Positions 2,301 to 2,893 of a DNA stretch of 4,151 nt are shown piece by piece (position 1 is the stretch's first letter; every line of letters begins with the position of its first letter). A program made the position numbers and the translations under genes. The notes beneath the pieces were generated by a model. It was not told the DNA's origin and made no database searches. It was given only the letters and a program-made list of their open reading frames with translations. Source of the DNA: Escherichia coli (GTDB lineage Bacteria; Pseudomonadota; Gammaproteobacteria; Enterobacterales; Enterobacteriaceae); NCBI RefSeq assembly GCF_003334785.1, contig NZ_QOWV01000048.1; one strand, given 5' to 3'.

Positions 2301-2702
2301 TCAGGATTTTTTCCAGAATTTCCACCATGGCGCCGGGGATTCAGTTAATTTTGCCTGGTGATTTTCAAGAAGGAGCATAGCCTGTTTCAGGCTGTCAATG
2401 TGCGAATCCTTGGACAAAAGTAAGGTGTTCAGGTGTTCAATCTCCTGTTTCAGATGACGAGTCACCTGTTCACTCTGGTCAGCAGAGGCTGTATCACGCT
2501 GTTCAGAGACCTGTCCAGAATGGTGTTCACCCTTCGGTTGTTCAAAGGGACCAAAGACACGTAAAAGCTCTAAAGTATCTACCATTTTTGCATTGCGTTC
2601 ACCGCTACAGGTGGACAGGTCACCTGCTTTAATTAACCTGTGCAGTGTTGTTCTACTCTTACCCGTCAGTCGGGCAGCCTCACTAATAGATACTCTGGCC
2701 AT
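2301..2702 (-). CDS. Helix-turn-helix DNA-binding protein, 133 aa (excisionase/AlpA/MerR-like HTH at the N-terminus, predicted coiled-coil C-terminal half); function unknown
   Basis: N-terminus VSISEAARLTGKSRTTLHRLIKAG fits the HTH pattern of Xis/AlpA-type proteins. The C-terminal half (LKQEIEHLNTLLLSKDSHIDSLKQAMLLLENHQAKL) has heptad-like Leu/Ile spacing. Its ATG overlaps the rop stop (TGATG), with AGGA 9 nt upstream. Confidence 0.75.
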   Translation of the reverse strand: MARVSISEAARLTGKSRTTLHRLIKAGDLSTCSGERNAKMVDTLELLRVFGPFEQPKGEHHSGQVSEQRDTASADQSEQVTRHLKQEIEHLNTLLLSKDSHIDSLKQAMLLLENHQAKLTESPAPWWKFWKKS

Positions 2703-2893
2703 CAGTTACCATCCTGTAATGCATCCAGTCTCGAGGACAGTGTACGGAAAAGATGCTCCGCATCATCGTGGAGTTTCTCACAAAGGTCCGCCTCAACATC
2801 GAGATCAAGCTCGTTAAGCTTCTCCAGCAGGAGCAGAGACTGATTCTGGATGAATTTAGCCATGTTCAGCGCTGTTTTCTGTTGTTTCGTCAT
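2702..2893 (-). CDS. rop: Rop/Rom (RNA one modulator), 63 aa
   Basis: MTKQQKTALNMAKFIQNQSLLLLEKLNELDLDVEADLCEKLHDDAEHLFRTLSS versus ColE1 Rom MTKQEKTALNMARFIRSQTLTLLEKLNELDADEQADICESLHDHADELYRS; same length. GAGGG ribosome-binding site 5 nt upstream of the ATG. Confidence 0.93.
   Translation of the reverse strand: MTKQQKTALNMAKFIQNQSLLLLEKLNELDLDVEADLCEKLHDDAEHLFRTLSSRLDALQDGN

Follow-up and report, generated by a model that had tools for sequence, protein, structure and literature searches.

An Exc1/ExcI-like gene overlapping rop on a small ColE1-like plasmid of Escherichia coli: a candidate DNA-membrane tether

Organization of the rop locus

The DNA analyzed here, a stretch of 4,151 nucleotides from Escherichia coli (NCBI RefSeq assembly GCF_003334785.1, contig NZ_QOWV01000048.1), is referred to below as the window. 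It is a circular ColE1-like plasmid of ~4075 bp, in which positions 4076-4151 duplicate positions 1-76. An identical record was found (NZ_LT985290.1), and 16 further PLSDB plasmid records are >99% identical. Our subject is a pair of overlapping genes on the minus strand, rop and an open reading frame (ORF) for a 133-aa protein with a helix-turn-helix (HTH) domain. Read on that strand, the order of features is the origin of replication (ori), a region of bom/oriT homology, a 49-aa ORF, a terminator-like hairpin, five ACTACA repeats, rop, the 133-aa ORF, a GANTC-rich array, a cer-like Xer site, and wzz(fepE), as listed in Table 1. Since RNAI is encoded on the plus strand, RNAII is on the minus strand, the same strand as rop and the 133-aa gene.

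The first cistron encodes what is, from its residues, a genuine Rop (Rop/Rom, Pfam PF01815) and is labeled 'Rop family plasmid primer RNA-binding protein' in RefSeq. The window Rop and ColE1 Rop share 36 of 63 residues. Among the identical residues are K3, N10, F14, Q18, and K25, which we take to be the RNA-binding positions of ColE1 Rop. At the junction with the second cistron, the minus strand reads AAC TGA TGG, so that the rop stop codon (2704-2702) and the second ATG (2702-2700) have one base in common (TGATG), and the AGGA before the second ATG sits within the rop coding sequence. The bicistronic TGATG overlap reported in a preliminary description of this DNA was therefore confirmed from the sequence and the ORF list. 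The same one-base overlap is annotated in the related plasmids L002, L006, L015, L017, and L018, and it is kept for alleles just 40% identical to the window protein (L006, L017, L018).

The rop locus resembles that of ColE1/pMB1 in encoding a true Rop with the presumed RNA-binding residues identical, but its arrangement is different. In ColE1, RNAI (645-749) and rop (1612-1803) are both on the minus strand, and rop stands alone on the RNAI strand and is directed towards ori. In the window, rop is on the RNAII strand, directed away from ori, and part of a bicistronic unit, with ~640-650 bp between the start of the bom homology and the rop ATG. As RNAI and rop are on opposite strands here and on the same strand in ColE1, the inversion of rop relative to ColE1/pMB1 is real. 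The Rfam assignment of RNAI and the comparison with ColE1 thus bear out the earlier statement that, unlike in pMB1, rop is encoded on the RNAII strand and is separated from bom by about 650 bp.

Table 1. Features of the window. Residue numbers are those of the 133-aa protein; AF2, AlphaFold2 model; pLDDT, predicted local distance difference test score.
Feature	Position	Strand	Basis or remark
rop, first cistron	2702-2893	-	63-aa ORF (ORF list)
Exc1/ExcI-like gene, second cistron	2301-2702	-	133-aa ORF
Junction element	2700-2715	-	AGGA Shine-Dalgarno 2715-2712, 9-nt spacer, TGATG 2704-2700
Winged HTH, MerR/excisionase-type, residues 1-50	2553-2702	-	AF2 beta-alpha-alpha-beta-beta-alpha, pLDDT 95-98
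Disordered linker, residues 51-73	2484-2552	-	AF2 without secondary structure, block-mean pLDDT 59-79; alignment columns unconserved
Long helix with leucine-zipper heptads, residues 74-120	2343-2483	-	AF2 single helix, pLDDT 96-98
Pro-containing spacer and aromatic-basic tail PWWKFWKKS, residues 121-133	2304-2342	-	AF2 short helix 126-130
-10-like element upstream of rop	2919-2924	-	TATACT (TACACT in relatives), sole such element; weak -35; read by eye
ACTACA direct repeats (five), phased at 11 bp	2981-3061	-	At -168, -157, -115, -104, and -93 from the rop ATG
Terminator-like hairpin with T-run	3074-3097	-	Pattern match only; directly upstream of the ACTACA repeats
GANTC-rich array	1903-2102		Between the HTH gene and the cer accessory arm; 12 GANTC sites/200 bp vs plasmid mean of 1.2/200 bp
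cer-like multimer resolution site	~1568-1850, core ~1598-1568	-	Core GGTGCGTACAATTAAAATGTTATGTTAAAT
RNAI	172-272	+	Rfam RF00106, 85.5 bits
ori	~3830		Order read on the minus strand
bom/oriT homology	starts ~3535		Sequence similarity to the ColE1 region
49-aa ORF	3362-3511	-	Hypothetical in RefSeq

Family and genomic contexts of the 133-aa protein

Sequence comparison places the 133-aa protein in the Exc1/ExcI-like family of plasmid proteins, to which the product of ColE1 exc1 also belongs. Its weaker tblastn matches are annotated as 'entry exclusion protein 1' (E 1e-6 to 9e-4, 29-35% identity), and the alignment with ColE1-type Exc1 covers the full length in the same domain order of HTH, coiled coil, and tail. 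In the alignment, 55 conserved N-terminal residues are followed by a variable linker, a coiled coil with a HIDSLKQAMLLLE-like motif, and a short aromatic-basic C-terminus. Pfam HTH_17 was found in the window protein (E 1.8e-5) and, at E ≤0.001, in 82 of the 107 aligned family members. The likeness to ColE1 Exc1 and the ExcI homologues thus comprises the HTH_17 domain, linker, coiled coil, and aromatic-basic tail, along with membership in a ColE1-like backbone. Identity is 19-31% to Exc1 of ColE1-type plasmids and 19% to ColE1 Exc1 itself. There are also differences: ColE1 exc1 precedes exc2 and is far from rop, whereas the window gene overlaps rop, and the tail contains WWKFW in the window protein versus GFWSRLFG in ColE1 Exc1.

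Two other matches were considered. NCBIfam NF038291 (rep_pAB02_ORF2, 'plasmid replication DNA-binding protein') matches residues 3-115 with 56 bits and an E value of 6e-15. This family is from Rep_3 plasmids of Acinetobacter/Moraxellaceae, where its gene is likewise found beside a replication gene. The score is below the curated cutoff of 85 bits, so the window protein, which is also shorter than the 172-position profile, is a relative of this family and not a member. The sole PADLOC match, to mad1, scored 25 bits on the HTH alone and was rejected as generic HTH similarity.

The family has been recognized previously. An excI homologue of unknown function was reported on all Rahnella ColE1-like plasmids (PMC2831885), and in Paracoccus plasmids Exc1-like ORFs with HTH_17 were found behind the rep genes of a wide variety of replication modules (PMC3832669). 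Since both papers noted it as a companion of replication modules, it is not new as a family. ColE1 exc1 and exc2 have been excluded from entry exclusion, which was assigned to mbeD instead (Yamada et al. 1995, as cited in PMC2831885 and PMC3832669). Our literature search found no paper characterizing Exc1-like proteins or linking them to Par/RocS.

Homologues of the 133-aa protein were found by tblastn in 2196 PLSDB records, mostly from Klebsiella, Escherichia, and Enterobacter, and 1189 of the 2196 carriers were typed as non-mobilizable by MOB-suite. In an evenly spaced sample of 60 of these records, a Rop coding sequence overlaps the match in 28-29. The preliminary description had implied that the arrangement is unusual, which is not the case given an overlap with rop in about half of the sample. 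A profile search of 1.84 billion representative proteins, in clusters at 50% identity, returned 2629 clusters at E ≤1e-10. Judged against its relatives, the 133-aa ORF is a real gene under purifying selection, with a ratio of nonsynonymous to synonymous substitution rates (dN/dS) of 0.13-0.22 in comparisons with relatives of 42-97% identity, and with length and domain order kept across hundreds of variants.

The basic backbone, as read from the related plasmids, is ori, rop, the HTH gene, an optional array, and cer, all in the RNAII direction. Minimal relatives have neither bom nor the ACTACA repeats, and in the window lineage ~780 bp are inserted between ori and rop. The gene is also found in other settings. 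In Rahnella and Serratia relatives it follows ori with no rop, and in Proteus, E. coli, and Entomomonas plasmids it is downstream of Rep with gaps of 2-7 bp. It overlaps Rep3 and RPA genes in metagenomic plasmids, and there is one context each in which it lies 2 bp past a RepL-like gene, is convergent with a Rep3 gene, or stands just upstream of an HTH_36/DnaD_N gene. In MOBC-type ColE1-like plasmids it is divergent from rop, 70 bp apart. A Klebsiella plasmid (L016, NZ_CP125198.1) carries an 85%-identical HTH allele at 1485-2099 with no annotated rop, together with genes for a TIR-domain protein and a Rep-type initiator, showing that the gene occurs beyond strictly ColE1-type settings even in this clade.

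Going by these gene orders, the gene accompanies replication modules in general and not Rop alone. Because Rop and the various Rep proteins are mechanistically unrelated, the coupling to rop is one case of several in which the gene rides on a replication-gene operon; it is ordinary in itself and gives no evidence for a Rop-specific partnership. The stoichiometric coupling suggested in the preliminary description is therefore unlikely if a Rop-specific one was meant, as the family is also coupled to Rep3, RPA, and RepL-type genes.

Domain architecture and a possible DNA-membrane tether

An AF2 model based on the 107-sequence alignment gave a mean pLDDT of 87.7 and divided the protein into a winged HTH, a disordered linker, a long helix, and a short tail. 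The heptads of the helix, as read from the sequence, are formed by Leu84, 91, 105, 112, and 119, with I88, L95, I102, and M109 four residues on, and the motif HIDSLKQAMLLLE is conserved in the coiled-coil region of the family alignment. R17 is invariant in a 14-sequence alignment and nearly so across the Exc1-like family, and W127 is at least 90% conserved in the family alignment. The Xis/AlpA-type HTH and leucine-rich coiled coil of the earlier account were upheld, the former by the Pfam HTH_17 match and the latter by the AF2 helix at 74-120. The protein does not conform to a MerR regulator: 23 disordered linker residues lie between its HTH and its helix, an effector domain is missing, and the Pfam MerR match is weak (E 0.021).

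The C-terminal tails were compared in 131 full-length family representatives. At least two aromatic, at least two basic, and no acidic residues are found within the last ten positions of 96 of them. WWxFW-like tails, the window protein's kind, are present in 57 of the 131, and tails of the MinD-like form GF(F/L/W)xR(L/I)F in 21, examples being KGFFKRLFGG, KGFLKRLFNF, and KKGFFKRLFNR. The membrane-targeting sequence of E. coli MinD is KGFLKRLFGG (PMC5471200). Near-copies of it end many family members, but the remainder of MinD is unrelated to the family and the window protein bears the WWxFW variant. ColE1 Exc1 ends in KKRGFWSRLFGR and pSK1 Par in KKGFWSRLFGG, the eight residues GFWSRLFG being common to both. 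This resemblance of the tail to MinD and Par, as it appears from the aligned termini, is a new point on the family.

In recent work, RocS, RicO, and Par are described as bridges between DNA and membrane, each with a winged HTH of the MerR type, a coiled coil, and a MinD-like amphipathic helix. Their oligomerization is needed for membrane binding, and they can bind DNA with little sequence specificity. RicO requires R18, the arginine with which its recognition helix begins, and R17 of the Exc1-like family corresponds to it. pSK1 Par, a single-protein partition factor of Staphylococcus (DUF536), is similar to the window protein in its N-terminal MerR-type winged HTH and in having its gene beside rep. 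However, Par has 245 aa compared to 133 aa, and par is divergent from rep, whereas the window gene is co-directional with and overlaps a replication gene. RocS (Streptococcus pneumoniae), RicO (Staphylococcus aureus), and RacA (Bacillus subtilis) are chromosomal DNA-membrane tethers of Firmicutes and differ from the window protein with its Trp-rich tail.

We propose that the 133-aa protein is a Par/RocS-like dimeric DNA-membrane tether that aids plasmid positioning or maintenance, and we give this reading, which is drawn by analogy, a probability of about 0.45. The zipper would dimerize the protein, and the two HTH domains would contact DNA, perhaps with as little sequence preference as has been reported for RocS and RicO. 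The paired C-terminal tails would then form a weak membrane-targeting amphipathic motif that needs two copies, as in MinD. Plasmid DNA would thereby be tethered to the inner membrane and its positioning or inheritance helped, as with pSK1 Par, RocS, and RicO in Firmicutes. A position at the end of a rop or rep operon would have the protein made wherever and whenever the replicon is expressed. In the window, the TGATG overlap and the internal Shine-Dalgarno sequence would provide translational coupling to Rop, and a Rop-specific protein-protein function would not be needed. A single-protein segregation factor was one of the roles put forward in the preliminary description, and it is now the best-supported role because the architecture matches that of pSK1 Par/RocS, including the MinD-like C-terminal tail in the family. 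The part of the idea that could not be carried over is homology to Par, which is not demonstrable.

Several observations weigh against the tether. The window tail itself, PWWKFWKKS, is Trp-rich and not MinD-like, with an AF2 pLDDT of 67-77 there, and both membrane and DNA binding by the window protein are predictions. A linker-fused AF2 dimer was uninformative (pLDDT 63, predicted template modeling score 0.28). No Pfam match to DUF536 (PF04394, RocS-like_C) was found in the window protein or in any of the 107 members, and PDB sequence searches returned generic coiled coils only. When the Exc1-like and Par family profiles were compared with hhalign, the match was in register over the HTH but not significant (probability 7-13%, the E value being 0.002 at 13%). 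Homology to pSK1 Par was dropped given the non-significant profile-profile match and the missing DUF536, and the relation to Par/RocS is claimed as a functional analogy only. No nearby repeat array tracks the protein or accompanies the family, and no centromere-like site could be assigned; the candidate arrays at 1903-2102 and 2981-3061 do not track the HTH alleles and are lacking in most relatives. In addition, high-copy ColE1-type plasmids are generally held to need no partition factor, and pBR322 and pUC replicate without this gene.

The same reading can be extended, more doubtfully, to the family as a whole. With >2600 clusters at 50% identity, Exc1-like proteins might make up a very large family of single-protein plasmid DNA-membrane tethers in Gram-negative bacteria, either functionally analogous to pSK1 Par, RocS, and RicO or related to them very distantly. 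If so, an active factor for positioning or maintenance would be present even on small high-copy ColE1-type plasmids, whose segregation is classically regarded as passive, and would be made in a fixed ratio to the replication-control protein. In the minimal backbone, consisting of ori, rop ~190 bp on, and the exc1-like gene, with no consensus promoter, RNAII read-through might supply the operon with transcripts and so tie its dosage to primer transcription. Single-protein DNA positioning of the Par/RocS type would extend from Firmicutes to plasmids of Proteobacteria, and random segregation and multimer resolution could no longer be regarded as all that small multicopy plasmids depend on. The function of ColE1 exc1 has been a question since its removal from the entry-exclusion role in 1995, and on thousands of clinical plasmids from Klebsiella, E. 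coli, and Acinetobacter its relatives carry no label other than 'HTH domain-containing protein' or 'plasmid replication DNA-binding protein'. The union of a winged HTH of the MerR type with a zipper and a MinD/Par-like tail in one family makes this question testable by simple experiments.

Repeat arrays, rival explanations and other plasmid features

The region upstream of rop was examined for expression signals. The TATACT element is a conjectural promoter element of rop, and a consensus promoter scan upstream of rop in the window and L006 gave nothing convincing. The ACTACA repeats form an iteron-like array in two groups, 2+3 in the window and 3+3 (six copies) in L002. They are confined to the lineage with the bom insert, and their absence from L006, L015, L017, and L018 indicates that the operon can do without them. 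The neighboring hairpin, if it terminates as its pattern suggests, would shield rop from transcription coming from ori/bom. In the minimal relatives (L006 1880-2086; L015, L017, L018), rop starts ~190 bp past the RNA/DNA switch region of ori on the RNAII strand. A scan of the ori-rop interval of these relatives found no consensus promoter and only weak terminator-like hairpins and, thus, RNAII read-through could add to expression of rop and the HTH gene.

A DNA target of the protein was sought in the repeats and in the gene itself. The sites of the GANTC-rich array are GAGTC/GACTC, arranged in palindromes, for example GAGTC-N6-GACTC. The corresponding place in L006 is taken by an array of equal length but of the GATTC-N6-GAATC type; there, L016 has L016 another GAGTC-rich version, L017 five GGTATACC palindromes, and L015 no array. 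The window-L006 alignment had suggested that array and HTH allele change together, but the array was rejected as a cognate site: L018 pairs an L006-type allele with a window-type array, all allele/array combinations are common in PLSDB (175, 196, and 245 records, approximate counts at ≥80% coverage), and GANTC clusters are confined to one backbone lineage. The ACTACA repeats were rejected as an operator on account of their absence from L006, L015, L017, and L018, plasmids in which the DNA upstream of rop is almost the same although the HTH alleles diverge. Binding sites within the gene itself were also rejected, as k-mer repeats there were only weakly above codon-shuffle expectation with no multiple-test correction. 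No repeat arrays were found downstream of the Rep-coupled homologues. The earlier proposal of a factor acting on the nearby repeat arrays is thus disfavored, since the arrays neither co-vary with the HTH alleles nor accompany the family, and these comparisons single out no cognate site.

The comparison of the window with L006 revealed a mosaic. Identity is 94-100% over rop, the first ~12 and last ~10 codons of the HTH gene, and the 3' flank, compared to ~40% at the protein level over the body of the HTH gene (window 2330-2668, L006 2310-2670), where synonymous divergence is saturated and dN/dS is 0.22. The pattern suggests allele replacement by recombination within the conserved gene ends. Avoidance of cross-dimerization between co-resident plasmids is a possible selective reason for it.

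The main rival to the tether is a transcriptional autoregulator, in which the HTH protein, as a dimer, would occupy an operator at the promoter of rop or rep, exert feedback on the replication-control operon, and so affect copy number indirectly. We consider this unlikely, although the MerR/Xis-type DNA-binding fold, the place of the gene as the last of the replication-gene operon in many replicons, and the five phased ACTACA repeats upstream of rop in the window all speak for it. Furthermore, pSK1 Par reportedly binds repeats in the promoter region of its own gene, so that one protein may serve both regulation and partition. An allele-specific form of the autoregulation raised in the preliminary description is argued against by the 330 bp upstream of rop, which are nearly identical in L006, L015, and L018 even though the HTH alleles are ~40% identical and differ in their recognition helices (TTLHRLIKAG versus PTIYKMINSG). 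The same three plasmids have no ACTACA repeats. In iteron plasmids, Rep3-type initiators usually autoregulate themselves, and the family-wide aromatic-basic tail would be left unexplained. We think it less likely still that the protein is a replication or copy-number accessory factor, second to Rop, that acts near the origin or the repeat arrays through handcuffing or host-factor recruitment. The NCBIfam name of the related family would fit such a role, as would the consistent adjacency of the gene to rep, rop, or ori and its location 400 bp downstream of ori in the minimal relatives. However, the family is found with replicons as unrelated as RNA-primed ColE1, Rep3, RPA, and RepL-like ones, and this range speaks against a function bound to any single initiation mechanism. 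The distribution of the arrays does not follow that of the protein, many ColE1-type replicons are without the gene, and exc1 is far from both ori and rop in ColE1.

Two further explanations are more remote than these. It is quite improbable that the protein is an excisionase-like architectural factor, helping multimer resolution by bending the DNA beside a resolvase site or the cer-like Xer site. In the window lineage the gene does lie between ori and the cer-like site, 200 bp from the array abutting the cer accessory arm, and serine recombinase genes are nearby in Proteus and Psychrobacter loci. On the other hand, arrays and HTH alleles are combined independently of each other, L015 lacks both an array and an adjacent cer, and many contexts have no recombinase or resolution site beside the gene. 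Excisionases are small monomeric proteins in which a coiled coil and such a tail are not expected; the 133-aa protein has both in addition to its HTH, and no recombinase gene was found on the plasmid in the ORF list or the RefSeq annotation. The least credible role, with very little in its favor, is the entry exclusion or other conjugation-related function that the historical name Exc1 implies. The annotation is inherited from Chan et al. 1985, and a membrane-directed tail would suit a function at the cell envelope. ColE1 exclusion, though, has been assigned to mbeD to the exclusion of exc1/exc2 (Yamada et al. 1995, through the two papers cited above), the protein is predicted to be cytoplasmic and DNA-binding, and most of its carriers are non-mobilizable according to MOB-suite.

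Some features of the remaining plasmid were also noted. The accessory region of the cer-like site is 98% identical to that of L006 and has partial similarity to the ColE1 region beside exc2, and the site points in the RNAII direction, matching the description for ColE1-like plasmids. A cluster of GTAATAC/GTATTAC inverted repeats lies at 3259-3342, directly downstream of the 49-aa ORF. It includes a perfect 11-nt palindrome pair (3317-3327, 3332-3342), which also scores as a terminator-like hairpin on the minus strand. In the conserved 3' flank of the 133-aa gene, a ~70-bp segment at ~2150-2225 (...CTCCTCACCACTAAAAATACCCACACCC.ACGCAAAATTAAAATTTTG...) is matched at 80-93% identity in >1300 large conjugative plasmids of Klebsiella and Salmonella, with no annotated feature beneath the match. 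Lastly, wzz(fepE) (595-1506, minus strand) is cut to 303 aa by a single C-to-T change at ~597 that makes a stop codon. The full-length Wzz(fepE) of the near-identical plasmid L001 (NZ_CP147063.1) has 372 aa, and the 68-aa ORF at 373-579 of the window is the orphaned Wzz(fepE) C-terminus.

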